From: Eledone cirrhosa
Lineage: Eukaryota
NCBI GenBank assembly: GCA_964016885.1
Contig: OZ024742.1
Coordinates: 74,710,001 to 74,774,000 of the forward strand
Direction: 5' to 3'
Length of the DNA: 64,000 bases
Under the pieces are notes generated by a model. It worked only from the letters and a program-made list of their open reading frames with translations, did not search any database and was not told the origin of the DNA. Position 1 is the first letter of the stretch, and every line of letters starts with the position of its first letter. The translations under genes and the position numbers were made by a program. Below, piece by piece: positions 4,417-62,148 of this stretch.

Positions 4417-4482
4417 TATTTTATCTGATGAAAGCACACCATAATTTACCTTGGTCGCCCTTGAAATATATATAATAAAATA
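4417..4482 (+). ncRNA. Type I hammerhead ribozyme in a pseudo-LTR related to the Naiad-type PLE
   Basis: TATTTTAT-CTGATGA-AAG...CTT-GAAA-TATATA-TA-ATAAAATA: perfect 8-bp stem I, intact core; homologous to 51471, 53986 and 57598 copies. Confidence 0.85.
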
Positions 4483-10834: not shown

Positions 10835-10899
<65 letters not shown>

Positions 10900-11137
10900 A
10901 AATAAAATAACAAGGACGATTCGCGGATTACAGAGTCGGGTCAGATCGATACAGATCGAACCTTGAGCTGATCAGTGGCGAAACGCGCGTCACCAACCAA
11001 TACCAATCGTCCTTGTTATGTTATTTTATTTCACTATAATACATTCTGTCTAGCTCTACACCTCGACACCGAAGTGAACCTAAACATCGAGTGCTCACAC
11101 GGGTGAAACTAGAGTAACGCCAATTTACACTCCCTGG

Positions 11138-11139
<2 letters not shown>
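10900..11139 (+). mobile_element. Truncated PLE pseudo-LTR with 3' half of an HHR and a short 5' inversion
   Basis: GAAAC-GCGC-GTC at 10980-10991; 10900-10920 is an inverted copy of about 11006-11031; TA tracts on both sides. Confidence 0.65.
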
Positions 11140-11233
<94 letters not shown>

Positions 11234-11405
11234 CTGTGTTTGTGTGTGTGTGCATGTATGCATGTATGTATGTATGTACATATGTATGTATGTATCTCTC
11301 TCTCTATATATATATATGCATATATATAGAGTTGTATGGTTGCAAGAAAATTGTGTCCGTAGGCGGTATGCCGGTTGAGCACTCGATGCTCGCGCAGAGC
11401 AGAGT

Positions 11406-11741
11406 ATAAGGAACAAGGATTCAGTGTTGCATCATAACATATTTAATAACATATTACATATGTTTCACTATCGATCAGCTCGAGACAAGAGCTATTAGAG
11501 ATCGAACCTGACTCTTTAATCGAAAGATCATCATATGTGCTTGCTATATGAACTCGTCTTAGATTAGTTAAAAACACATAGAATCGGAGATGAGTTCATA
11601 TAGCAAGCATATCTGACGATCTTTCGATTAAAGAGTCATTTTCGATCTATAATAGGTCTTGACTCGAGCTGATCGATAGTGAAACATATGTGATATGTTA
11701 TTAAATATGTTATGATGCAACACTGAATCTTTGTTCCTTAT
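11406..11741. repeat. Fold-back inverted repeat (154-bp arms), one HHR per arm
   Basis: 11406-11559 vs 11588-11741 are reverse complements; HHRs at 11450-11539 (-) and 11608-11697 (+). Confidence 0.9.
11608..11697 (+). ncRNA. Type I hammerhead with extended stem II
   Basis: CATAT-CTGACGA...GAAAC-ATAT-GTG-ATATG. This copy has GUG at the cleavage site; the mirror copy has GUA but core AUGAUGA, so the consensus is canonical. Confidence 0.75.
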
Positions 11742-11752
11742 CCTTATAGTGT

Positions 11753-11800
<48 letters not shown>

Positions 11801-11803
<3 letters not shown>

Positions 11804-12831
11804 GAGCGGAACAAGCAAACATTAAACAATCTTTTAAATATATTTAAAATACGATTTAAATATTCACCTGTTCTAGTGCTGTGACCGACGGTTTCGCTTA
11901 TCAAAAGATTGGAAATTCAGAGAATTTCCAATGGAAAGAATCACCTCTTCAGATAGCTATTTCCACACCACAGGGCACAAAGCCTTGTGGTTAGTAAATA
12001 TATCACTTTCTGCCCGATGCATGAGGTCAAGCCATTAAAGTGACCCACACATAAATAAGCCGTAAGAAAAAGCGGGAATTATAGAGTTGTTGAAATTTCA
12101 TGTTACAAAAATAGCAGCACGATACATTTTTTTCTCTACATAGAAGGAGACTACATATAAATGATATAAATATCCCAGTAGGTACTAAGTACCCACAGAA
12201 AAATACATGGTGTCTATAACAGTTGTTGTTCAATGGTACTAATTTGAGATACCAGAACTATAAAAATGAGCGGAACAAGCAAACATTAAACAATCTTTTA
12301 AATAAATAAAAATACGATTTAAATATTCACCTGTTCTAGTGCTGTCACCGACGGTTTCGCTTATCAAAAGATTGGAAATTCAGAGAATTCTCAATGGAAA
12401 GAATCAGCTCTTCAGATAGCTATTTCCACACCACAGGGCACAAAGCCTTGTGGTTAGTAAATATATCGCTTTCTGCCCGATGCATGAAGTCAGGCCGTTA
12501 AAGTAACCCTGTAAGAAAAAGCGGGAATTATAGACTTGTTGAAATTTCATGTTACTAAAAATAGCAGCACGATACAACATTTTTTTCTCTACATAGAAGG
12601 AGAATACATATCAATGATATGAATATTCCAGTAGGTACTAAGTACCCACGGAAATATACATGGTGTCTATAACAGTTGTTGTTCAATGGTACTAATTTGA
12701 GATACCAGAACTATAAAAATGAGCGCTCATTTATAGTTTTGGTATCTCAAATTAGTACCATTGAACAACAACTGTTATAGACACCATGTATATTTCCGTG
12801 GGGACTTAGTATCTACTGGAATATTTATATC

Positions 12832-12835
<4 letters not shown>
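11801..12835 (-). repeat. Tandem 464-bp HHR-bearing units plus fold-back (retrozyme/pseudo-LTR-like)
   Basis: Units start at 11801 and 12265; palindromic turn ATGAGCGCTCAT at 12719-12730, then inverted copy to about 12835; TA flanks. Confidence 0.85.
11878..11957 (-). ncRNA. Type I hammerhead ribozyme (second copy 12341-12420)
   Basis: Minus strand GCTAT-CTGAAGA-G...C-GAAAC-CGTCG-GTC-ACAGC with a long hairpin in stem II. Confidence 0.8.
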
Positions 12836-12866
<31 letters not shown>

Positions 12867-13040
12867 TTAATTTTGACCCAAACGCTAGCCCATACCATCA
12901 CCACTATCCCACCCCACCACATCTACCTTCCGATGTTTGTCGTGGAATAAGCACACATTCATGCAAAGAAATAGGACCGATGTTTATATACACCCATCAT
13001 CCCACCAATCGCCACATACACTGTATTTTCATTTGAATAA

Positions 13041-13130
13041 CTAGTCTGATGAGCAGGTCGATACTAGAGTCGGGTTCATAACGTCCGTCTGTGACGTTGA
13101 GCCAATCCTCTGCGAAACGCGCGTAATGGA
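13041..13130 (+). ncRNA. Type I hammerhead with extended stem II
   Basis: CTGATGA-GCAG...CTGC-GAAAC-GCGC-GTA; stem I weak. A related 3' half lies at 23905-23978 (-). Confidence 0.75.
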
Positions 13131-13256
13131 TCGATACACAATAAAAACATAAATACCTGTAAACGAAACTTCATCGTTTTTCTTAATATATACATTCTAC
13201 CTGTGCATCAAGTGCTTATATATACATACATACATACACACACACATATATATATA

Positions 13257-15212: not shown

Positions 15213-18200
15213 CTATCAGTTTAGCCCGGCGTTGCTCAGGTTTGTTCATTTGCTATGAAAAGTTACATACAGGTAAACGTGGCTTGAAAGCCAATAAGCT
15301 TATCAATTAAGTGCATAAAGCAGTTGAACCGGTTATTAAAAGTTACGAACTAATTAGCATTTTGGACAATCAATGATGGGTTAATAATCTTCCAATAGCG
15401 AATTTAGCAGACCAAAGTTGCAAGATAGTGGCCCTGATGGCGCTGGGTGTCAGATCTGTCCGCCATGGGTGACCATACCAGGAAATAGTTTTCCAGACGG
15501 CATAGCTCCAACACCTCCAACACCTGTACCAACATCTATAGCACCTCTTTGTAGACGATATTGCGTGTCATCCTTTGAGGAGTGTAAGCAAAAAGTCTAT
15601 TCCTGCTTCCTACGCGGGAACAGGCAACACAAAGTTGACCATAGGAGAAGCATAGCTCCCCCAAATGGATGCCCTCCACCGACAATGTGTGCCCTTGTGA
15701 CTTGTTAATGGACATGGCAAAACATGGTCTCACCTGGAATTGGGATCGCCGGAAATCGAACGGGATATCTGACGCCGAGGGGAAAAGGTTCATCCTTGGA
15801 ATGAAAACATTCTCCCCTCTCCCGCACCGCGTTACAATGGTGGCCTCAATCAAGTGGGGCGTCAGTGACTTGACGACCATGCGAGTACCGTTGCACTGCT
15901 TTGGTGGACGCAAGTTCCTTATAAGCATAATGGGGCAGCCAACGTTAAGCATAAGAATGTGAGGTGGATGCCCTGGAGGCTCAAGGAAATTTAATAACTC
16001 AACCGGATAATTAACGATATCGTAGGGGTCTGATGTCCGGTCGATAGATTTGAAGATGTGCTCTTTACCGGGAATCTTCTCAATCAGCTGTTCGTTAATA
16101 AAATTAACCATGGCATTCAGAGCAAGGATGGCTCTTTCGCTGAGCCAATCGAGGTTTTTAAAGTTAGATGAGACATTAGGAAAAACTGCTTCCCAAAGAT
16201 CAGAAAAGCTGCTCACAATGTTGCACAGGGAGTCGATTGCTATGCCGCCCTTGTCATCCACAGGGACCCTGCCCTCACCAAGTGCTAAAATGTTCTGAGC
16301 AAATGTTGAAGACATGTTGTCACCATACAAATGAGCACGCATATTTGTACTCAGGTACAAACTCTTCACCTGGGGCCACAACGTGGACGCCTTAAGGCAG
16401 GCACGCACTTCATCAGCTCTTGTCCCTTTGGGGATGACAGGCAGCGTTTGCCGAAAATCCCCTGATAGCAGAAGGGTTACGCCACCTATAGGAGCCGTAG
16501 AATATCTAATGTCTTTCAGGGTACTGTCCAATGCATCAAAGGCTCCCTTGTGTGCCATTGTGCACTCATCCCAAACAATGAGGCAACATTTTTTGAGAAG
16601 CAGAGCTTCGTGTGAGCTCTTGCTGATATTGCATGTTGGTGTCTCAGTTTTTACTAAATCCAAGGGGAGTTTAAAGGTTGAATGTGCTGTCCTGCCTTCC
16701 GGTAGCAAAGTAGCACCGATCCCGGACGATGCAACGGCCAACGCAATTTGTTTCTCCTGACGAATATTAGCGAGAATCAATTTCGTTACAAAAGTTTTTC
16801 CGGTACCCCCAGGAGCATCGAGAAAGTAAATACCCCCAGTCTGATTTTGACCCGCGTCAATGATAGTTAAATAGGCCAACCGCTGGCTCGACAGAAATTT
16901 GGGCTCATTTTCCTCTAAGTATTGGGAAAGAGATTCGATGTCATATGCTGTTTCCCGCAACAAATCTGGAGCCAACGTGTTAGTTTCCTCTCTGACGGTT
17001 GACGGCAAGCCATACGTCGCCAACTCAATCCCACCCATGTCGAGGAGGGTGTCATCGATATCAATGAGTGCTCTGTTGTAGATAATGTCGCTGTAACCAA
17101 CTTCTACTGAAGGATACTGCAGATGAACCAGGCGCAAGAAATCCTCAGACATGAAGTCTCCGTACTTGACCCATAAAGATTTGGGATCACCCAATTCACA
17201 CTTTTGAAGCAAAATGGCAAAGAGTTCCCATAGACTTTTAGGTGATTTAAACAAAGCACCCTCTGCTAAAGTGGAATCCCATTGCAAATCATCTTCCAAA
17301 AGATCACGCTTAAAGGAGGCTTCCCGTTACATATCACATATTTCTCCATCAACAGGTTTGAGGTCCTGAAAATTTTGTGGGCCTACAACTTCATGCAGAA
17401 GAAGGCGGAGATGATAGCACTCATGCTGACTTGGGGGCACAGTGTAAACCCTTTCAAGACAACTGTCAAATTTTACACCAGGATATTTTCAACAGCCTAA
17501 CCTGACTTTCTTCGCACCCAAGTTTTTTTCGACCATATAAAGTAGGTACATAATTGTTTGCGCAAATGTATCGAACTGGCAAAGTTTGAAGAAACCCGTC
17601 AGAGTGGTCTCTTTCGGATCGGCGGCCAGCTTGGCGGCGGTTTGCTCCGTAAAGTAAACCCTTTGCCCATTTTCCAAATGTACCGCAAGCTGTACGATGG
17701 CGGGGTGCCGTTGGTGTAGGGGTAAACCAAATAGGCGCCAAAACGCTTCATTGCTACTGATGTACCCTGCTATTTTCAGCTTGAAATGCGAACATTGCGG
17801 CATCAGAGCCCTTATTTACATATTTGCATATGTATTTTATCGACTTAACGGAGTTGCAAAACTCAACGTTGATGTGGGCGTTGAACATCTTCGAAAGAAG
17901 CGGGGAGTAAGGGACCACCCTTCTATTGTCGACTTGACCTCCCTTTACTGTTGTGCTGAAGCCACCGTTCTCGGGCTGTCTCCGCCTGTACAGGAGGTAC
18001 CCGTCGCCACCAGTCTGAGTCTCGTCAACAAATTTTTTTGGGTATCCCTTACTGCACAACCCCCCTTTCAGACACGTGTGATGCTCATTGGGACCCGACG
18101 CACACGGACCATGAATCATGTTAGCTTTGACGATGTCATGTAATTCCTTGTCAGTTGCTGGGTTAGGGATTTCAGCCGAAATGAAGCTGCCTATGGCATT

Positions 18201-21160
18201 TGAATTGATTTTATCAGCTAACCAAATCAAAATGTGAGCATATGGCAGCCCTCGTTTTTGTCATTCGACGGTGAACATGTCACATTTTACAGCCCCTTTT
18301 TGATTAAAGCCATGAGTTTAGCCAGTTTCAGTCTGGACACTCTGGCAATGAGGTCATGTCTGTTCGAATAATTTTGCCCTGGAAAAAGTTCACAGGTTAT
18401 CTCAACCCATTTCGGATTACACGTGAATGTAATGAACAGATCTGGGCGACCATAATGGCGCACACACGTCATAGCATCCTAGGTTCTTTCGTGCATGTAT
18501 CGGGGCCCCCAACGTAGCTAGAGGGAAGGATACAAACCTTTCCAAGGTTCCGGGGATCTGCATCATTCCTTATGCCATCACGGAGGTGAATGTAACATTC
18601 AGAACGCAACTGTTTCTGATGCGTGTGAATGAAGCATAACCTTTCAGACTCCATTTTTGCAGCCATATCAACTGCAAACTGATGGAAAAGCTCTCGTGAT
18701 CTATGAATATGATTAAAACTATTCTGTCTGATCATGAAGCGGTAGGAATAAAAATCCATACAGGATACCCTTTTATTTGACGTCTCGTCAGGATTGTTTG
18801 ACGTCCCGTCCGAATTGTTTGACTTGCTTTGAGGAATGCCGAAATGGTATCCGTCTTCCCCACAAACAAAAAGCAGTGGATATTGTAGGCTGTCGTATGA
18901 CCGATGCGTTTCACAAATCCTGTGCAGCGTATCGTCAAGACCTTTAATGACAATGTCCCTTTTTTGATGCTGATCTCTATGGAGAACAACGGCTACTTCA
19001 TTGCATGCGGGGGCGTTATAGCGGCGAGCATGCTCCCCAGATGGCCTTTTCTCAGCATCAATAACGATGTTGAAGTTGGGTACAGGTGTTGATTCCAAGG
19101 CATATTTGAAGCTATGGACGTAGCTGTTGTTTTCATGAAGCATGCGTTGAACAGATTTACTTTTCTCAACCATTTACTTTTGTCAACAGATTTACTTTTG
19201 TCAACAGATTTACTTTTCTCGCCGTTAAACTTAGAAATAATAGAAATACGCATGTCAGCCTGTCTAATGTAGTCAGTTATGAAGGAGATTTGGAGAAACG
19301 TGGACTTTTCCGTTTCTTGAGGCTGGACTGATCCAATTAGATGGTATATCTGTCCCTGAACTCTAAATGTGGGCATCCACGCTTCTTCTCGGACAACACG
19401 TGCCCCGAAAGAGGTTATCTGAAAGGCACAATTGTACTTTCTGATGAGTTCAAGAAAATCTTTTGACCTAGGAGTTGTGCCAGTAAGAGGTTCTTTCAAA
19501 GGCTGCGGTGGGTCCTCTAGGAGGAGTAAATTAACCTTGCCATTGGAGCAGCACATTCCAATGGTTCTCCAGCCCACTTATTTGCACTACAGAACTTGCA
19601 AGTTAAACTTATATTCCCAATCTGGATGTCAGGCCGCATTGAGAGGTTAAGTGTTGGATCATAATTAAAAGCTTTTAAAAGCCAATATGAATTGTTTGGA
19701 CTTTTTATGCCCCGAGCAGTTTCTTTACGCCGATTGTTCTTTTCTAGTCTAATACTGCGATCGTTGAGTGATTCTTTGGCTCTAGCAGCGACAGTAGCCA
19801 CAGCATTCCAAGAATTACGGATAGAACGGTCTATACCAACAAGCTTAGCACGCGACGAAGTATAGTAAGATGTATTGCTGGCTAGACGCTCACTACGCTG
19901 GTCGTCGGTTTCAGCAGCTCTCCTATTTGCTGAACGTAAAGCAGTTTGTGACAATCGCAATTCAGTTTCCTCCTGCGACTCATTCAACCGTCTTCTTTTC
20001 TGTTTAGCTGCAGACACCGTTTTACGACCAAGATGGTCACTTATTTTGGGGGGCATTATATCTGAAAATGTTAAACAAAAACCTTATGAAATTCGAAACT
20101 AAATGGTAAACACAATTGAATGCAAGATGAAATGGCAAGGAAAAAATAGTAAATGAAGATGCAATATTCAAACAAAATTGGGGGTAGATATGACTAATTA
20201 TCTAGCAGCTGGTAGTATTTGGACGGAAAAGCAGAATATTTGGGGGGAAAAAAATCACCGAACAAACGTTTTTGCAAGCTTAAAAGTGAAATTTTATGCT
20301 TGACAGAAAGTATTGACAGGTATATTTTTAACAACGTAAAAGAAAGAAGAATATACAGGTAAACGTGGCTTGAAACCGAATAAGCTTTACGAATTCTAAT
20401 TTTAAATACCATGATCGACTGTTTTTTGCTTCATGACCTTCTCCTGACCAAAAGCAATAATTGTCCCGACTTTGAATAGAATCCGTTGGAAATAAAACAC
20501 TGGAAATATTAGACTTTATATGAAAAGAAAAAAAAACACATTAACACACACTCACCTAATCAGTATTCGGCATAATTGCAGATCTACAACACTATCGGTG
20601 TTGTCATATTAATATTTAACCAATTAAAGTCGTAAAAAATAAATAATTTAAACATTCCGATTCATGTCTTAAGCATTAATCTGTTATATGAAGTGTTATT
20701 TGCAATAAGCCGATTTAAAATGCCCCAGAAAAGCCGTATGTCAATACGCAACGCCAATGACTCCCGCAGCAGTTAAATTATAGAAAGGGGGAAGAGCGAC
20801 GGAGAAAGCAAAGCTAAGAAAATATAGGGAGGTGTGTAAAACAGTGTTGTCATATAGAGCGTGAAGAGCGACAGAGAGAGTAAAGCAGTTAAATTATAGA
20901 GAGGAGGAATGATCTATTATAGAGAGAGGGAAGAGCGACGAACAGAGTAAAGCTAAGACACTATAGGGAGGTGTGTTAAACCTCAAAGCATGATCGATTT
21001 TTGCCATTATTGTTGATTGATTTGAAATTGTTTTGCTTCATGACCTTCTCCTGACCAAAAGCAATAATTGTTTCGTCTTTGAATAGAATCCGTTGGAAAT
21101 TGTGGACGTGCATACGTTACAAACCTTCAGCACACACATCCTCAGCTTTATATATATAGA
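15213..21160 (-). mobile_element. Helitron (autonomous type, inactivated), about 5.95 kb
   Basis: 5' TC at 21160; 3' hairpin CCTGAGCAACGCCGGG with degenerate ATAG end; A|T insertion splitting a SINE TSD; contains RepHel. Confidence 0.95.
15536..20056 (-). pseudogene. Helitron RepHel (HUH Rep + Pif1-like helicase), frameshifted
   Basis: PDLFITFTCNP, VE*QKRGLPYAHIL, KYICKYVNKG; helicase DAPGGTGKT, IVWDEC, GDFRQTLPV, FAMSINKSQG; split over at least seven ORF pieces. Confidence 0.95.
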
Positions 21161-23873: not shown

Positions 23874-23973
23874 TATATATATACACATATATTTATATAT
23901 ATATATTAGAAAAAACGAGGAAGTTTCGTTTACATGTATTAGATTTTTATTGTGAATCATCCTGTTTACGCGC

Positions 23974-24083
<110 letters not shown>

Positions 24084-29399: not shown

Positions 29400-32300
29400 G
29401 GTGAGCTATGCTGCCCTCTTACCAGCACTTTCCCTTCCAAACACACACACCAGCCACCCACCCCTGATGCCGCTCGGTGCCCCAGTCCCCGGCCCCACGC
29501 CCCATCCCCCACCCCTCCAAATCGACCCCTGCAGCACTTGCGGCACTACTAACAAACGGAAGAGGGGCTGGAACTGTTTGCGGCTGCTTCCACCACCTCA
29601 CCTGTGTTGGCTTGACTCGTCGAGCTTCCAATGCCCTCGCAGCGTGGAGGTGCAGGAGCTGCCACTCCCCCACGTCTTCCCAGCCACGGCTGTCTGGCAC
29701 ACCACCAGATGGGACAGCGAGCTTGCCTGACGCCCGAGCCTCGCTGGTCAACATCGCTCGGCTCAGGCGGCTCAGGAAGATCTCACTCAGGATCCCGTGA
29801 GCGGCACGGGTGCCGGTAGCCGATGCCTTCGCTTCCTCGATTGAGAGCGCCCTGGACTCCAATCGAGCCAGTGACTGGGAGCGGCTGTTCCATTTCGCCC
29901 CACTCGCCCTCGGCCTCCCCAGCTCTGGCGCTGACCGAGGCGGCCGGTTAGCAGCAGCCTTCGTCAAGGCCAATGTCTCGTCATTTGGGCGAGCGCCCAT
30001 TCCAAGCGTGCCCAGGGACTCCACACACCCCACCCTCAGGTACCCCCTATCCTCCACTCTCGAGGCCAGCGCCGAGCGTTTGCTTGACCAGGTAAACGCA
30101 AAGCTTATCATGGGTGATGTCTCGGCCGCAGTCAGAGTTGTTGCCTCAGAGGACACTGTCCTCCAACCCACCGAGGAGATCCTGGCTGCTCTGCGGCTCA
30201 AACACCCTGAGTCACCTACTGATCTCAGACCCATAGCTCCACCCGACCCCCACCTACTCCTTGTGGCTACTGATGCAGATATTATGTCCGCCATCAGGTC
30301 CTTCCCAGCTAGCAGCTGCGGAGGTGTTGATGGTCTCCGACAAGGCCACCTCAAGGAGTTGACATCTCCCCTCTCCGCCGAGGCCGGGTGCCGCCTTCTG
30401 AGTGGAAATGTGGAGCTCACCAATAGGCTCATTCATGGTGCCCTCGACCCTTACGCCCGAGGCCTCTTTTTTTCGGCCAGCCTCACCGTTCTCAGGAAGA
30501 AAGAGGGTGGCATACGCCCCATTGCAGTGGGCAATGTCTTCCGGAGGCTGGCTGCCAAGGTGATCTGCAAGTCCACCACACACGAACTGGGTGAGGAGTT
30601 TAGTCCGGTGCAACTGGGTGTCGTCGTGTCCGGTGGCTGTGAGGGAGCCTCTCATGCAATCAGGCAGTTCTTTAGCAGCTGCACCTCGGTATCGGCATCC
30701 AGAGACTCCAGGCACCTCATTGTCAAGCTTGACATGAGGAATGCCTTTAACTCTTTACGCCGGGATCATCTGCTCGGGGCCTGCCTCAGGCGAGCCCCCT
30801 CTGCCTACCCGCTGGCCTACCTGTCATATGGAGCCCCGAGCATGCTCCTAGCTGCTGATACGGTCATACCCTCGGCTACTGGGGTCCAACAGCACGACCC
30901 TTTGAGACCCCTCCTGTTCGCCCCTGGTATTGACCACATCGCCCAGAGTATCACGGCCCCTCTCAACGTTTGGTATCTGGATGATGCTACGTTGGGCGGG
31001 CCCGTACGGACGGTCTGCCAAGACCTTCAAACGGTGATTCCTGCCCTGGCGGGAAACGGCCTCCAGGTCAACTCGGCCAAGTCGGAGGTGGTGAACGTCA
31101 GCCTCGATGCTGTGAGCTTTGCAGCCTCCGTCTTGGACGTGCGGTCCATTCTCCGCCAGGTTCAGGTGACCCCCAAAGAAGATGTCCTCATCCTCGGGTC
31201 ACCGATCCACCCGCCGGCCATCCGCTCCACCATCAGGTCCTGGATTCAACAGCTCCAGACTCTCACGGGCCGACTGGGCTTGATTGACGGCCACCCAGCT
31301 CTCTTTCTGCTGAGGAACTGCTTCGCTATGCCGAAGCTCCTCTATACACTCCGCAGCGATCCATGCTACACCCAGACATCTCTCCTTGCTGACCTCGATA
31401 CTTGTATCCGAGCAGCAGCGGAGGGGATATGCAACGTCAAGTTTGACGACATAGGGTGGCAACAGCCATTTTACCGGTCAGGTATGGCGGCCTAGGCCTC
31501 CGCTCCCCGATCTCACTAGCTTTGCCGGCGTATCTTTCGTCGGTAACCTCGTGCTGCGTCCTCGTCAGCAGGGTTCTTCAAAACACAACAGAACCCTCTG
31601 TGTTCAGAGAACGTGAGGCCACCTGTGAGACGTGGGACCGGCTGGGACTTAGCCCAGTAGACGTCCCTCCTCCTTCTCCCCCTGTTGACGACGTCAAGTC
31701 CCCCCAACACACTTGGGATGCCATCCAGTGCAGCCTGGCCTCAGACAGGCTCACGCGCTAGCTCGACCAGCACCGCCTTGCTTGTTTTCGTGCAGCCTCC
31801 AAACCCCACAGTGGTGCCTGGCTCCATGTTCTGCCCTCCTTCTCCACTGGCACGCAGCTAGACAACCATAGACTGCGAATCGGCGTTTCCATGAGGCTCG
31901 GCCTCCGGATCTGCCAGCCACACCAATGTCGCTGCGGTTCCACCGCTGACTCTTTCGGCCTCCACCCGCTTTCCTGTCGCCACAGTGCCGGCCGCATTCC
32001 ACGCTATACTGCCCTCAACGAGGTCATTAAGCATGGCTTGGACGCTGCAGGCTTCCCTTCCCAGCTCAAGCCGGTGGGGCTAGATCGAGGGGACGCAAAA
32101 GGCCAGATGGCATGACAATCTTCCCGTTCCACGGTGGCAAACCCCTCGTCTGGGATGCCACTTGCACCGACACTTCCTGCAGCCGCAGCCTGGTGCAGTC
32201 TGCGACTGACTCGGGTTCTGCTGCACGTCGGGCTGAGGGGGCCAAACTCCTCAAATACCGGTCACTCTCCGACAGATTTGCGGTCGTTCCTCTGGCAGTG

Positions 32301-46240: not shown

Positions 46241-47877
46241 CCAGTCAGTTTCCTGTATACGATCGATCAATGGCCGGCTTTACCATATTAAAAAAAAATT
46301 TCGCTCTACATGGCTGAATACAATAAATGTAATTGTGTTCATGCCAACACAAGAGCAAGAATGAGGGGCTCATTCTACTGACATGGCTTTAAAATGAGGC
46401 TTGTTTGCATAATTGCAAACGAATTGAATATTATTATTAATATTCGAAAAACTCAGATTACATTTATATTTATAAACGTCCAAGTAAGACACTTGTTCAT
46501 AACAATCCCGCATACGAGAGTTTTACATTTCAAACCCTGCTAAAGTCAAATGGATGTTTGATATGAACATTAAGTGACTTCTGATTGCGATATTAAAGAT
46601 GAAAAAGCTACCTTCTATTGAGTGTAATATCTTTTCGGTGTATTTAAATATAATTTAAATTGGTATCCTTACCAGCTATTTAAGACAAACATCTAAATAT
46701 TTTAAAGAGCATCACAAAATCAGGGTGGCTAAGTTATTCTACAAGGATCAAGCTTCTTATCAAAGGATCTTTTAGTATTGCAATAGGTGGTAAGGAACGC
46801 TGAATAATAGAAGTAAGCTCCCGGTGAACTGCCCCACGATTTGGTTTCTATTTCTGCTAATGGGTTTTGAAAAAGTGCGAATGATTCAGCATCTCATTTC
46901 AACTTTAATATACAGTTCCTTGCAGTAGTCAAAGTTGAGTAATATTGGGTCTAAAGTGAACTAGTACTAAATGCCGTAGTTTAAACTGATCATTCTCCCA
47001 GAGAGGTTTTTGTATGCACCAATGCAGATATGTCATATCTTCCAGGTTAAACATATCTGGAACAATATATCCACAATCTGTTATACAATCGAGTGTCTGA
47101 ACTGGCTGAACTGTTCAAATTTTCTTCTACCAATTGTTACTTATTTTGGGAATTTGATTGAAAATATATTTGCCTATATATACTTTCACTAGTCCGCCCT
47201 AGTTATAGCACTATATTTTGTTAGAAATATGAGATATTTTTGTATTCAATTAATTATTAAGAAGCACCATGAGTTCGGAGAAAGGCTTTATAACGAATCT
47301 GTATTTTATCAATTTGTGTTATCAACTTCAATCTGAGCATCCACATTGATGATATAAGAAACTGTTTCTGTGTTTACTCACTCGCATATGTATAGATTAT
47401 ATAGTTCTGTGTCAAACAATGAATATATTAGTCATGTTTATTACACTCTTCTGTTGGTTTTGTGTCTCACACAGCATATGATCCGTTGGTTATCACTGAA
47501 CATTTAATTCTTATGTGTATCGAGTCATGTCCGCTTGACAGAGCTCGACTCAGTCGATGTTCTACCCACTATATAAATGGAAGTAACATTTCGAAGTAAA
47601 GAGACACTAATCAATTTTACACTGCTAACATTATGTGCAGTGGTAAGTTGTTAAAGTGGTATATATTTTCAGTTCAGTGCTCAGATTACAGAGTTTGATA
47701 CCTTAAATATATACAGATACAGTACAGCGCTGACAACAGAATTGAAACTTTCGGGATTTCTCAAGTAAACTCTGTTTTCTTTATAGAATATATGAATGTA
47801 AAAAAAAATCTAATGTATTATGCCATAAGGACGCTATGGTTTATAGCATACATACCATCTGTTATTTGTATTTGCAG

Positions 47878-49360
47878 GAAAGAAATGTATGATATTGCGT
47901 TGAAGTTTGCCAAGGTTCTGATGAAACTAGGAATTAAAAAAGGAGAGAAGATTGCATATTGTGTTCCTAACTGTGTGGAATGGATGAGCTACGACATTGG
48001 AATCATGATGACGGGGGCATATTCTATAAGATTAATGTTTGGATTGGCAGATATGAAATCTGTTTTAGAAGGATGTAGTGTAGTTGTATTTGGTTCGAAA
48101 TCTATTTGGGATAGTTTTCTGTCTATTGCAGAGATAAACGATAACGGAAAGATATCTAGTAGCGCCTGCCCTAATTTAAGAATAGCTATTGATGTCTCCA
48201 GCACATACAGACCACCCAATGCTTTATCTGCTGCTAAGTTAATGGCAGAAATATATGATGATGATACAATTGAATTTCCTTACATTGATCCAGAAGACAT
48301 TGCAACAATCAATCAGACTTCCGGTACTACTGGTGTACCTAAACGTATTTGTCACAGCCATTTTGAGTACTTAAACATACCACATGCAGTTTTAGAAAGT
48401 AATAGTATTATTTCTGATATTTCATTTAGCAATCGCCCAATGGGATATATTGGAGGATATCCTTTATCATTGTTAACCGGAGGAACTGTACACGTATCAG
48501 GAGATGTAGAAATGTTGAATGATGAGAATAACTTAGATTTTCTCATAAACATATGGCAACAAGAGAAATGTACTATAGTTGGGGCTGCAACACAGGACTT
48601 GAAACGACTAAGCAAACGCGAATTCCGTGTAAAGAAGATAGTTGCAGGTGGAGATTTGATTACACGGGATGCAATAGAACATTCTTTTAAAATTGCAGAT
48701 GAATTTGTAATTGCTTACGGAAGTACTGAAGCTTTGATTATATCTTTAAGAGTTTTTACCCCAGAAAATATTTCAGAACATCGACAAGGAATGCTGGGTT
48801 ATATACTTGGAGGTTCAGAAATCAAGATTGTTGATAATGAGAAAAGAGTTGTAGATATTGGAAAACCGGGTCATTTGTATTTTCGAAGTAAGTGGACAAC
48901 ACATCAATTTCTGGATGGTACATCATGCCTAGAAAATGGATGGTATCCAACGTCAGATATTTGTTACTTAACAAAAGATAGTGAACTTATCATGATTGGA
49001 AGAAGTACAGACTTTATTAAAAAGTGTACAGTAAAGTTATCAATTAAACTAATTGAAGATTATGTCGGACGTCACTCAAGTATAGAAGCAGTGGTTGTCG
49101 TAGCAATTCCAGACAAGGATGTTGGTGAACGTGTGTGTGCATGTGTTACTGTATTACCTGATCAGGAGTTCAATGAAGATAAATTAAAGAAGTTCTGTGC
49201 AGAAACAATGCCACAACCAACTAACTTTGATTCAGTATCGATGCATCCTGATCATATAGTATATTTTCCTTGTTTTCCACTTTTGGCTAGTGGCAAGTGT
49301 GACAGAAAAACTATAACAGCTTTGGCCATTACAAAGGTTAAAGATTGTAACGATAAATAA
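47878..49360 (+). CDS. Acyl-CoA synthetase (ANL family, ACSF2-like), coding exon 2 (terminal)
   Basis: Acceptor TTTGCAG|G; uninterrupted 493 codons; P-loop QTSGTTGVPK, AYGSTE, GWYPTSD, IGRSTDFIK, PLLASGKCDR; spliced product about 543 aa. Confidence 0.95.
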
Positions 49361-53944: not shown

Positions 53945-56900
53945 ACGATATTAATAAATGGAAACTATATTTATAAAACCATATTTATTTCATTATACAT
54001 ATTTCAGGGATACCACATTAAATTATGGTATGCCTTCATCAGACAAAATACAATATATAACAGTTTTACAAATAGGTTTGACGTACCCTTTAAAATACAA
54101 CCATTACTTTTGGAGGCTGTCTGGATAGTGATTTGTTCATATAATAAGTCATAGTGTGAAGCACAATTAGAAAAAGACGGAGAGAAAGAAAGAGAAAAGA
54201 ACAAAGACAGAGAGAGAGAGAAAGAAAAGAGAAAGAAAACCTAGAGAAATATCGGAGAGAGAGAGAAAAGTATGGAGAAAAGAAAGAGATAGATAAAGAT
54301 AGGAGAAAATAAAAAAAGTAAAGAAAAGGAAGGAATAAGAAAAACAAAGGAATAAGAAAAACAAAGGAAAGCAACAGAGAGATATCAAGTCATCATACAG
54401 AAAGAGAACCCCAAGAGAGAGAAATACTATATAGAGAGAGGGGGTGGGGGGTGACAGTGACAACTTTACGTCATGTCATATTAAGTTAAGTTAACAATTT
54501 ATATGAAATGAATAATAAAAATATAAATATAAGTATCAATATTCATGAATGGGACATAGATATATAATATGAGAAATGTAACATTGTTCAATAATGACCA
54601 TATGTTTAGTTTAGAAACTTGAGATCAATATACCAAAATCCGAGTTCAAAATGTACCCTTGGTATAGAGATTAGTATTTTATGCAAAGACATACAAATAC
54701 ATATGTATATATACATACATATAGATACGCACGTCCTGAAAATAGAAATTATGTTTACTCAAGCCAACAATATAGCCATACATAACGTAAATAATTTCTC
54801 TTAATCACTGCTATTTGTGTTATAAAAATTTCACAGTATATATATACAAATATATACGATTAACAATCATGTCCTCATATATACGATTACCATTCATGTG
54901 TTTCATATTATGCACATCTGCAACATACCTCTCAACCACATAGATATATACACACACATATATACACATACATATGTATAATAAATATTTGCGTGCGTCC
55001 TCATGCATCACTCATGTATATATACAGACACATATACAAACACAAAAAATCTATAACACTTTCTATGCATGTTAATACACACATATGCATTTGTATAGAG
55101 ATAATCCAATATCAATAAATTACCAAAGGGTTATAATTTGTAAATATAACCATAACAATACAAATTTAAAATGCAACTACACAGTCAAAAGAAATCTAGA
55201 AATATCAAAGCATTAAATATTAAAACACTATAGAGTATCTTAAGTTAAAATAATATGTTTTATATATTTAGTATAGAAATTTATCCTACGTATATCTCAA
55301 TCAAGATATTGAGAGGGTAGACTTGTGAAAGTTATGAGAAGCTATCATAATCAAAACAAATAAAAATAATTTAAAAGATTTAAAAAATTTTAAAAACCCA
55401 ATGATTCTACAGATAACCTTATATTTATATTTAATATAGAAATTTACCTTACGTATATTTTATTTAATACATTGGAAGTATAGACATTTTAAAGTAGTTT
55501 ATTATATCCATGTTTATATTTAGGAAGGAAGTTTAAAAAGAAAAAGGTGAAGGAATCTAATGGATTATCGACAGGTTCTATATATTAACTAAAATTACTT
55601 AATTAATTATACTATATTTTAAATTTATATTTATATTTAAATGTTGAGTTCAATCTATGTCTGCAGCAACTGAATAAATTGTTTCTCAGATTAAGGGAAT
55701 TTTTGGACTTTAATATAAAGAATATTTCTTCAATACAAAGATCACAATTTTCTGAAGAGGAATTAAAAGGAGTGCCCTTTGAGATAATATTCCAATTCAT
55801 CGAATGTTTAATATTATCTCGTTTTAGGTCCCATAGTAGGCTAGATAGCGAAGTTGAAGATTTTTTGTTTGGATCTGTGAAAGAATTCTTATGATTATTG
55901 AAGCGAAATTTAAATACTGTAGAGGTGGAACCAACATAGTTAAATGAATTTAAATTAGTTTTAACATTACAATTGTACACTACATTTTTAGCTAAGCAGT
56001 TGTTACTTAACGAACAGTTAGATTTATTTCTACAGTTACAGTTATTTAATTGAATATTGTTTGGGTTATTATTGGTATTTTGGTTAGGTTTTAAATTCCT
56101 ATTATAATTCTATTAATATTTTGTGCTAAGTTTTTGGTGGACGAGTAAGTTAATTTTATAGTGTGTCTATTAAAAATTGAGTGATATTTATGTGTTCTAG
56201 GGAAGCGTGTGTCAAGAGCTTTAAAGAATAGTTTAGCAATAGGGGTTTTAATATTTAGTGAGAAAGGGGGAGCAAACCATAATATATTTCTAGTTCTATT
56301 TCTTTTTCGGCTTTTGGAATTATTGTAATGATTTCTATTATAGTTGTTAAAGTTGTTACCGTAATTGAAATTGTTATTATTTTGGTTAGTTTGCTTATTA
56401 TTATTATTATCGATGTATTTAATTTTATTTCTATATCCAGCTCTAGCTAATGCTTCGTTGTAATACTGCGCTTTTTCATCAAATATATTTTTATTAGATG
56501 AAATTCTTGAAATTCGTTCTTGAACAGAGTTCACTATAGTATTTTTAACAGATCTGGGGTGATTAGAGTTAAAGTTGACATAATTCAAGTTCTCATTTAG
56601 TTTGTGAAATGGATAATGAAGACATGTGTTGAGGTTTAGTGTTACATCAAGAAAATTGACTATTCTATGGTTATTCTCTATTTCTATTTTTAGATTAAGG
56701 TAATTAAAACATTGTATAATTTGTTTTCTTTTTCTATTTAGTTCACAGCTATTATATTCTATAAGTAAAAGCATGTCATCACGATATAAACCTCCGGTTA
56801 CACCTGGTATTTTTCTATGTAGCGAATTAATTATAAATAGGCCCACAAGGTCCGTTACCTGAGCTGAGTCTGATGATCCCATAGTTATGTCGGAATTATT

Positions 56901-57790
56901 ATTTCTATCTGCCCTAGTCCAGAGTTGGTTATTAAATTCTATCAATGTTTTCCTTGCCGATAATATAATGTGCATTTCATTGCTAGTTAGGTCAGTATGT
57001 TTAAATGCGTAATTTAGTGCCTTATTCAGTAGATTAGGAGTGATAGATGAATAGTAGTTAGCGATATCCAGCTGAATAAACTTATTATTAGAGTTATATT
57101 TAATTTTTTTAAACCAATCAATAACCTCACTAGTTCCTTTCCATAAATTTAAGTAAGATAAATTAGGTAAGTTTATAATTTGTTGTATTACCCTGTCTAG
57201 AATAGTTTTGCTAAGTTTTCCCAGGTCAGATTTGGATGGTGCAATTAATCTGACTGGTAAGTCATTTTCAAAGCTTCTTTTGTGATCCTTCATATTGATC
57301 TTGGGTTTTCTAGGCATGAAGGGTTGTGTTTTATTCTCAATGTCTAATTCATGCATTATACAAGATGCATCTGTATTAAGTTTTTCCAGTTCATCCTTAC
57401 TTGTTACCTTGTACTTTTTCCTTAGTTCTTTGTCTCTCTGTCTTTGTTCTTTTCTCTTTCTTTCTCTCCGTCTTTTTCTAATTGTGCTTAACACTATGAC
57501 TTATTATATGAACAAATCACTATCCAGACAGCCTCCAAAAGTAATGGTTGTATTTTAAAGTGTACGTCAAACCTATTTGTAAAACTGTTATATATTGTAT
57601 TTTGCTGATGAAGGCATACCATAATTTAATGTGGTATCCCTGAAATATGTATAATGAAATAAATATGGTTTTATAAATATAGTTTCCATTTATTAATATC
57701 GTATATCTACTCCAAAAATTTGTCGAGTGCTTTATATCAGTTATAAAAATATTTACTTGTTGTATCCCAACAATTTTAAATAGAAATTTT
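53945..57790 (-). mobile_element. Naiad-type Penelope-like element with 5' inverted pseudo-LTR
   Basis: ORF plus 3' pseudo-LTR with HHR at 53986-54050 (-); inverted copy of the 3' end at about 57433-57790 with HHR at 57598-57661 (+). Confidence 0.9.
55612..57430 (-). pseudogene. PLE reverse transcriptase + GIY-YIG endonuclease (5'-truncated, one frameshift near 56100)
   Basis: QLDIANYYSSI, MGSSDSAQVTDLVG, GLYRDD, FLDVTL, SNHP, ILWFAPPFS; linker CNCRNKSNCSLSNNC; VVY...YVG, RF.NH, CDLC, CRH. Confidence 0.92.
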
Positions 57791-60949: not shown

Positions 60950-61700
60950 TGTTTATATATAATCATAGTCCTTTCGTTACACACTCTGTGACCTCTTCAG
61001 TGACTGGGGATTCCTTTCTTTGTTTCTGTGCCTTTCCTTTCTTCTGTCCTACGCCATTTTGTTTCTGTCTGTGTGTTGTGTGCTCAGTTTGCGCATGCGC
61101 CACATCCGGGTGTCTGTGTGTGTTTATGTTCATTTATCTATTTGTTTATTTATTTATTTATTTATTTACATGTTATTGGTTGGTTGTTTGTTCTATGTGT
61201 GTGTGTGTTTTCATTTTGTCCTTAATTGTAAGTTGTGATGTTGCTGTTCCACTCATATTTTCTATTTAATTTTGGTTGTAATTCTTTTATGTTTATTGCC
61301 TCTGTAATTTGTCTAAACATTGCATCTTTTCTGTGTGTAGATTCTATTTTTATTTCTATGTTCTCTAATTTACTCTTGTGTTCTATCTTAGCATGTTGGT
61401 AGAGTACAGATGATTCTTTATTATCTTGAAGGTCTCGCCAGTGTTCATTTATCCGTTCCCCTATACTACGAGCTGTCTCACCTATGTACACTATATTTTT
61501 GTTTCTACATTGTCCTTCAGTACATCTTATGCTATACACTACATTTCTAGTTTTACAGTTAATATGGGGGCTTATTTTACAGGTTATACATTTCTTATCT
61601 ATACATGAGGGTCTTTGAAACGGGTATGTCTTGCTAATAAGTGTTTTTACGGAGGTACCTAGTCTTTCTACTATCTTAATATTGAGTTTATGTTTATTTA
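60950..61700 (-). mobile_element. PLE 3' fragment (GIY-YIG) with decayed HHR at 60967-61006
   Basis: VYSIRC...YIGETARSIGERINEH...SVLYQH...RQITEA...LN; AGTCA-CTGAAGA...GAAA-GGACT lacking stem III. Confidence 0.85.
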
Positions 61701-62148
61701 GGGCCCTTTATTTAGGGCATTGCACGATAGCATTAATTGATAATTATTAATAATGTTATATCGTGCAATGGTCATACTCGATAACGAGGGGGCAGCCATC
61801 ATATATATATATATGATGGCTGCAACTCGATTTCGAGTAATGCCATTGCTTGATACTTAAGCATGAGCATCACGGGCATGGCGTCCTAGTCCTGATAGAG
61901 GCTTGCCTATGGTCATAAATACCATGCATCGCAAAAAGAATGTCACATATCAAGCAATGCCTGTGCTTGAAGCTTTTTTAAGTGAGGAAAGGCTTTGCAC
62001 TGAACATCGAATGCATTTACCCAAAAAGAAGAACTGGTCTACACCATTGGATGCAAACGAAGTCGCAGGTTTTATATCAGAGTAACCTTCTCCTAAAGAG
62101 ATGTCTTAATGAGGACTAGGAGTCCCTCACTCCATCCCCAAAATACTT

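Follow-up and report, generated by a model that had tools for sequence, protein, structure and literature searches.

The window, a 64-kb stretch of Eledone cirrhosa DNA, carries four decayed end-pieces of Hydra-type Penelope-like retrotransposons (PLEs), each with a dimer-type hammerhead. The strings from which the initial annotation had described a shared stem II module were all found in place in the window, and the four sites do fall into three distinct repeat families, with flank identities of 0.61 (A-B), 0.45 (A-C) and 0.45 (B-C). The features of the locus are as follows.

10898..10921, minus strand: inverted short piece of the 3' end of the family A copy's element, joined 5' of copy A (from sequence)
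10922..11140, plus strand: family A copy, 3' end of a Penelope-like element, 5'-truncated, CUGANGA absent, extending to the long end at a (TA)n tract
10933..10937, plus strand: GAGUC, module 5' strand of copy A
10965..10968, plus strand: GAGC, module 3' strand of copy A, 11 nt before GAAA (10980)
11085..11095, plus strand: conserved tail element CAUCGAGUGCU of copy A
11330..11565, minus strand: family B, minus arm of an inverted pair, damaged core, left end approximate; GAGUC 11514-11510, GAGC 11481-11478, GAAA 11466-11463, tail hairpin at about 11378-11391
11582..11744, plus strand: family B, plus arm; CUGACGA 11613-11619, GAGUC 11633-11637, GAGC 11666-11669, GAAA 11681-11684
13038..13133, plus strand: family C hammerhead; CUGAUGA 13046-13052, GAGUC 13067-13071, GAGC 13099-13102, GAAA 13114-13117, palindromic stem III, GUA 13123-13125
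13140..13145, plus strand: AAUAAA 3' of the family C cleavage site, a likely poly(A) signal
13205..13215, plus strand: tail hairpin of the family C copy, immediately 5' of the (TA)n junction

The two family B copies form a 163-bp inverted pair. The plus arm (11613 copy) has the cleavage triplet GUG, which is not NUH, and a mutated upper helix; the family C copy (13046) has an intact hammerhead core and a weak stem I. All four are decayed insertions, and the roles proposed below for the module are probably no longer performed in them. When the window was scanned with a covariance model built here, the four sites were the only strong matches (63-90 bits, the next best match reaching 26 bits), three of the four having belonged to the training set. 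Rfam returned no match in the window at the gathering score; below that threshold, 116 matches were obtained in 4 loci, mostly microRNA models on simple repeats, with no ribozyme or epsilon family among them.

Other repeats were also observed in the window. The interval from copy B to copy C contains, at 11795-12843, a tandem duplication of 464 bp and, after it, a 114-bp inverted copy in a PLE-like layout, and a family C 3' remnant that begins at GAAA, without the module, lies on the minus strand at 23897-23978. A Hydra-type element with a plain-hairpin hammerhead occupies 54000-57660 (54042, minus; 57605, plus), with relatives at 4425 and 51479. The window further contains Helitron fragments (15536-20083), a reverse transcriptase of LINE type (29801-31495), a 553-aa frame without interruption for an AMP-binding enzyme (47699-49360) and a GIY-YIG fragment (61222-61707).

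The carrier element was characterized through additional copies from the same genome. Upstream extension of family D revealed broken open reading frames with the motifs MRWRAF, PDKTG and CxCX5C (the copy L128 reads MRWRAF and PDKTG), which match features of the Hydra clade as given in the available part of PMC8557442. The layout of one family D copy (L131) comprises a hammerhead, an ORF start about 250 nt further on, a stop, a 3' region of 1.8 kb, a second hammerhead and TA repeats. The module lies on the coding strand within the pseudo-LTR. For family C, an endonuclease of its own was found 1.2 kb upstream of the hammerhead (L509), and both families D and C possess the CxCX5C linker and C-terminal endonuclease; the Pfam GIY-YIG model gave no match on the family D fragment. 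Family I shows a Hydra-type N-terminus (RIRWCAY) in copies that appear internally deleted. The family (L396, L375) resembles a short non-autonomous Hydra derivative composed of a pseudo-LTR, about 80 N-terminal codons and a 3' region. At the level of sequence, families D, C and I are linked to Hydra-type coding sequence, likeness to the published Hydra proteins being judged by eye. The carrier of families A, B, E, F, G, H and J was judged by the shared hammerhead, AWUAAA (not in F) and tail hairpin (not in E), and not by an ORF.

The encoded proteins have diverged considerably. Families C and D share 59% identity over 111 reverse transcriptase (RT) residues and 42% in the endonuclease, and families I and D 37-40% at the N-terminus. 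In an RT tree of sequences from this genome only, C and D grouped with one unassigned row (support 87/93); in the corresponding endonuclease tree they were not resolved, and a single clade was not rejected (p-AU 0.295). Several other Hydra-type families of the same genome have plain stem II hairpins, and all 26 Hydra hammerhead rows of File S2 in PMC8557442 show a stem II of 3-7 bp without the module. As far as the available text of that paper goes, RxRW, DKT, the CxCX5C linker, the C-terminal endonuclease and (TA)n targets are common to the Hydra clade and the present elements, as are a hammerhead near the 3' end and inverted 5'-truncated copies. The size differs as a descriptive trait, L131 being about 4.9 kb and the Hydra clade generally below 3 kb (PMC8557442, in part). 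A Neptune-like PLE lying beside one copy was rejected as the carrier, as no module was found near the copies of its 784-aa ORF. This young PLE family (L062-L070), with overlapping frames of 455 and 784 aa, was represented by at least 150 copies near 97% identity and formed tandem units of 4.7-4.8 kb; no hammerhead was detected in it by the pattern used.

The CUGANGA core was intact at 11613, at 13046 and in 4,478 genome matches, absent from copy A and damaged in the family B minus arm. Stem III is palindromic (CGCGCG, CATATG or CAATTG) and is accompanied by a GUA or GUC triplet. In stem I, 77% of the cells were paired and three of four pairs changed on both sides. An AWUAAA word follows the cleavage site by 5-15 nt in nine of the ten families defined below, and was not found in the two rows of family F among the matches listed. 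In families I and J (L359, L404), stem I extends to about 20 bp (15-25 bp in the copies folded) and partly sequesters AAUAAA, an extension that could suppress polyadenylation in the upstream pseudo-LTR. According to the accessible portion of PMC4209133, the minimal type I hammerheads of PLEs share with the present ones the CUGANGA and GAAA cores, a short palindromic stem III, a short stem I, the location in a pseudo-LTR and the occurrence mostly as solo or inverted copies. They differ in stem II, which does not exceed about 7-8 bp and has a plain loop there, and which here measures about 20-25 bp and contains an invariant internal loop.

The abundance of the module was analyzed in the genome of the same animal (3.0 Gb), with the reversed pattern as control. 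A 5'-anchored pattern gave 4,488 matches (137 in the control), a pattern restricted to the core and the 3' strand gave 5,305 (13), and the full motif pattern, with the core, both strands and GAAA, gave 4,478 (0). A pattern departing from the fixed spacing yielded 39 matches vs. 27 in the control, and its sole use was to reveal families H and I. The copies fetched were part of the first 100 matches listed for each search, and they were sorted by eye into ten families, A to J, of 2 to 25 copies each among those matches; family F is thin, with 2-4 copies. Families A-G were found with the pattern fixing the 3' strand, and H, I and J with a pattern containing the motif. A covariance model trained without these last three families assigned 26-48 bits to all ten loci given from them. 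Pattern matches were also obtained in metagenomic (89 stretches) and viral (1 stretch) collections, none with a PLE protein match among those listed; they were dismissed as chance, the best scoring 22.8 bits vs. 26-48 for true families. Both collections are poor in animal DNA and say little about other animals; the module is so far known from one genome and mostly from dead copies.

The invariant part of the module consists of two strands, GAGUC opposite GAGC, a nine-nucleotide motif kept across the ten families. Its identity between families was 0.98, compared with 0.39 in 38 flanking columns (45 family pairs, among the matches listed), and eight of its nine columns were invariant vs. none of the 38 in the flanks. 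These values do not fit close relatives of uniform identity, the outcome that would have told against the initial annotation, and they support its proposal of a conserved accessory domain in hammerhead stem II. The conservation was also observed where a search had left one strand free. In the seven families not found through the 5' motif, identity was 0.97 in the motif and 0.50 in the flanks; with the 5' strand unconstrained, GAGTC was exact in 85 of 111 distinct copies and within one mismatch in 107 (among the matches listed); and with the 3' strand unconstrained, GAGC occurred at the fixed distance exactly in 23 of 30 copies and within one mismatch in 28 (again among the matches listed). The distance from GAGC to the catalytic GAAA is 11 nt in nine families and 12 nt in H, and the 23-44 nt between the two strands are always filled by a hairpin. 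The conserved word had been given as AGAGUC. The part that stands is GAGUC, together with GAGC; the first A does not, and the word becomes R-GAGUC. In 29 copies related to the one at 13060 and collected by homology only, this first position was G in 25 and A in 2, and AGAGTC was read in just one. A protein-coding constraint on the arm was excluded by indels of 1-2 nt between families, and a Pol III B box by the presence of GGTTCGA in families B and D only.

At the RNA level, the motif is predicted to fold as a two-sided AG/G internal loop with a neighboring pyrimidine bulge. The predicted order is lower helix, short bulge, Y-R, R-Y, G-C, AG opposite G, U-A and C-G, followed by the bulged pyrimidine, the upper helix and a variable apical hairpin. 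The R of R-GAGUC covaries with its partner, the pair being A-U in five families, G-C in four and mismatched in F (among the matches listed); for the pair below it, C-G was read in four families, U-A in two, U-G in one and A-G in three. The next pair above the motif is G-U, G-C, A-U or U-A depending on the family; the helix there reads GGG/CCY or AGG/CCU in most families, GAA/UUU in H, and is led by U-A in I. The bulged pyrimidine is U in six families and C in four, and a fold free of the bulge is possible in E and H. For the three invariant pairs, which do not covary, pairing is a prediction only.

The initial annotation had drawn instead a one-sided bulge of 8-9 nt ending in AGAGUC. This shape was not sustained: four or five of the six letters have complementary partners opposite, and two pairs at the 5' edge change on both sides between families. 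In a 37-row alignment, the two-sided structure paired 81.3% of the cells with 13 pairs changed on both sides, compared with 77.9% and 10 pairs for the one-sided one, six of the rows (E, F) being one column off, which lowers these counts. Constrained folding gave a lower energy for the two-sided form in 89 of 100 testable copies among the matches listed, after 11 of the 111 had been dropped as the constrained pair was impossible in them; in family F it was preferred in only one of three copies. In the minimum-energy fold of the 10926 copy, CAG pairs with CUG and UC with GA. The upper helix of the earlier drawing folds in only one of the four window copies (13060), where two copy-specific changes break the family fold. 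RNAalifold gave no useful consensus on the 37 rows.

The one-sided shape could still represent the second state of a switch, in which GAGCY would have two alternative partners, RGAGUC and the segment immediately above it; pairing with the latter would leave GAGUC exposed as a bulge. In families B and D the alternative helix shows full complementarity; 76% of its cells are paired with one pair changed on both sides, and three of its pairs hold in nine of ten families. Its central pair, however, is C-A in six of ten families, and its formation would cost on average about 5-6 kcal/mol in five families and destroy the apical hairpin; we consider such a switch very improbable.

The predicted loop was compared with known RNA motifs. 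In the kink-turn consensus, two stems flank a 3-nt bulge and the tandem sheared G-A pairs adjoining it; by inspection, no register of the present loop gave both flanking stems, and no Rfam match was obtained. The bulged-G or loop E consensus has AGUA opposite GAA; here AGUC stands opposite GAG, with the C and the GAG in all ten families, and this motif was likewise rejected. A likeness was noted to the arginine sandwich ASM4 of 7SK RNA, in which, according to the available part of PMC6189040, a single bulged pyrimidine also lies 5' of a G-C and then an A-U pair. It differs in that the bulged letter is C in four of our ten families and that E and H can pair without a bulge, so that the U:A-U triple, which a bulged U forms there with the A-U pair beyond the G-C pair, is not general, and no counterpart of the adjacent AG/G loop was found in that part of the account. 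Nor was a description of the motif found in the accessible parts of the literature searched (PMC4209133, PMC8557442, PMC11167929, PMC6189040 and 10.64898/2026.07.22.740005). The structural module is real and apparently undescribed, within a kind of ribozyme and a retroelement clade that are already known.

Conservation could also act at the DNA level, with AGTCR as the downstream promoter element (DPE) of an internal pseudo-LTR promoter and GAGC as the site of a second factor. The DPE consensus is RGWYV, which AGTCR fits. The pseudo-LTR lies just 5' of the ORF and likely holds the promoter (PMC11167929, in part). A promoter would leave unexplained the paired changes between the strands and the hairpin ever present in the spacer of 23-44 nt, and by eye no initiator-like word was seen at a fixed distance in families C and D; we consider this reading improbable.

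The explanation that we rank first, with an even chance of being correct on the sequence evidence, is that GAGUC/GAGC constitutes a sequence-specific protein-binding site, probably for the RT of the element itself. It was placed first because no co-conserved RNA partner was seen at a fixed place in stem I in the ten families, and because a PLE hammerhead tested in the available part of PMC11167929 cleaved only when its own protein was added. The ligand would read the letters kept constant at places where other base pairs would serve equally well, and the purine internal loop and bulge would open the major groove for it. The most likely ligand would be the RT-endonuclease encoded by the element itself; bound at a distance of about one helical turn from the core, it might mark the RNA as a template and help or gate the folding of an otherwise weak dimer-type ribozyme. 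A further step, in which the RT bound at GAGUC/GAGC would choose between cleavage and copying of the RNA, is unlikely. The main argument against a universal RT site is the absence of the module from other Hydra families: since many of them in this genome, and the 26 published rows, have a plain stem II, not all Hydra proteins need the module. The ligand could instead be a host protein.

Alternatively, the loop might be the receptor of an RNA tertiary contact, made with the extended stem I, the loop of the tail hairpin or a dimer partner, that would stabilize the active fold without protein. Contacts between stems I and II are the known role of the peripheral parts of hammerheads (PMC4209133, in part), and the 11-nt register is kept in nine of ten families despite an apical part that varies between 23 and 44 nt. 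Stem I can also be extended to 15-25 bp in the folded copies of I and J, and a second conserved element with a YGAG loop is present in the tail of nine of ten families. Against this, stem I offers no invariant partner at a fixed position, the offset and pairing of AWUAAA varying by family; the loop is further from the core than the canonical loop II; and by eye no complementarity of the tail loop was seen that changes with the motif. A tertiary contact is possible in our judgment, although rather unlikely.

The initial annotation had also suggested priming at the module. Hepadnaviral epsilon has a one-sided bulge between two helices; the bulge templates the priming of cDNA. The present module resembles it in being a stem, an interruption and a stem on the RNA of a reverse-transcribing element, and a candidate site for binding of the polymerase, and differs in its two-sided loop and in the insertion ends, which are not at the loop. 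These ends were mapped by eye in 30 distinct family D copies, picked among the matches listed by a pattern downstream of the ribozyme. Downstream of the cleavage site, 15 of the 3' ends lay at a distance of about 50 nt, 13 at about 130 nt and two in between, the short and the long ends both abutting TA repeats. None of the 30 copies had its 5' junction at the cleavage site or its 3' end at the motif. The position of 28 of 30 ends at either of two sites past the ribozyme speaks, indirectly, against epsilon-like priming at the module. Considered along with it was a 3' splice site, YAG|AGUC, for which the hammerhead core would serve as the branch point. YAG|AGTC is present in families A, B and D, about 18 nt 3' of a CTGAN word, and in Penelope of D. 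virilis the hammerhead coincides with the end of an intron (PMC4209133, in part), but the A is replaced by G in C, H, I and J, which removes the acceptor. Either reading, priming or splicing, is scarcely credible.

The ends recall those of PAc, the Poseidon element of Anolis, as presented in the available part of PMC11167929: two discrete 3' ends bound the tail in both elements, and neither gives a sign of insertions beginning at the cleavage site. PAc belongs to a different clade, its tail measures 30-40 nt vs. about 80-100 nt here, and an internal-loop motif in stem II is not described in that part of the paper. The Anolis element has two start sites and uses uncleaved RNA, and its protein-binding region was mapped downstream of the ribozyme (PMC11167929, in part). 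In the present elements, a small hairpin with a YGAG loop was found between the two insertion ends in nine of the ten families, but not in the three rows of family E. The tail word TCGAGTGCT was also detected 3' of the plain-hairpin hammerhead of the window (54000-57660 element), and the tail end of the coral consensus Hydra-2_Amil perhaps holds a similar hairpin. The tail hairpin is a candidate RT-binding or initiation signal, more widespread than the module and a rival to it as the main RT site.

PLE hammerheads cleave poorly on their own, and the one that was tested together with its protein depended on it. A fixed motif among diverging stems, loops and proteins (37-60% amino acid identity between carriers) provides a precise target for tests, with the plain-hairpin Hydra families of the same genome as natural controls. 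A binding site for the RT would show how RNA is recognized by a telomerase-related reverse transcriptase; should the protein-gated choice between cleavage and copying be true, no RT-recognition motif within a hammerhead would have been defined earlier.

Further arrangements of the module were observed in the genome. In the lower helix of an additional family, e.g., at 13081089 and 36622696 of G000:C1, GAAU faces GUUC, which is probably a further compensatory change. A 64-bp tandem array is made of the stem II arm of family J alone (L401:2900-4100; G000:C4, about 79.433-79.434 Mb), and a 48-bp tandem array of the 5' half of family A lies at about 300.829 Mb of G000:C3.
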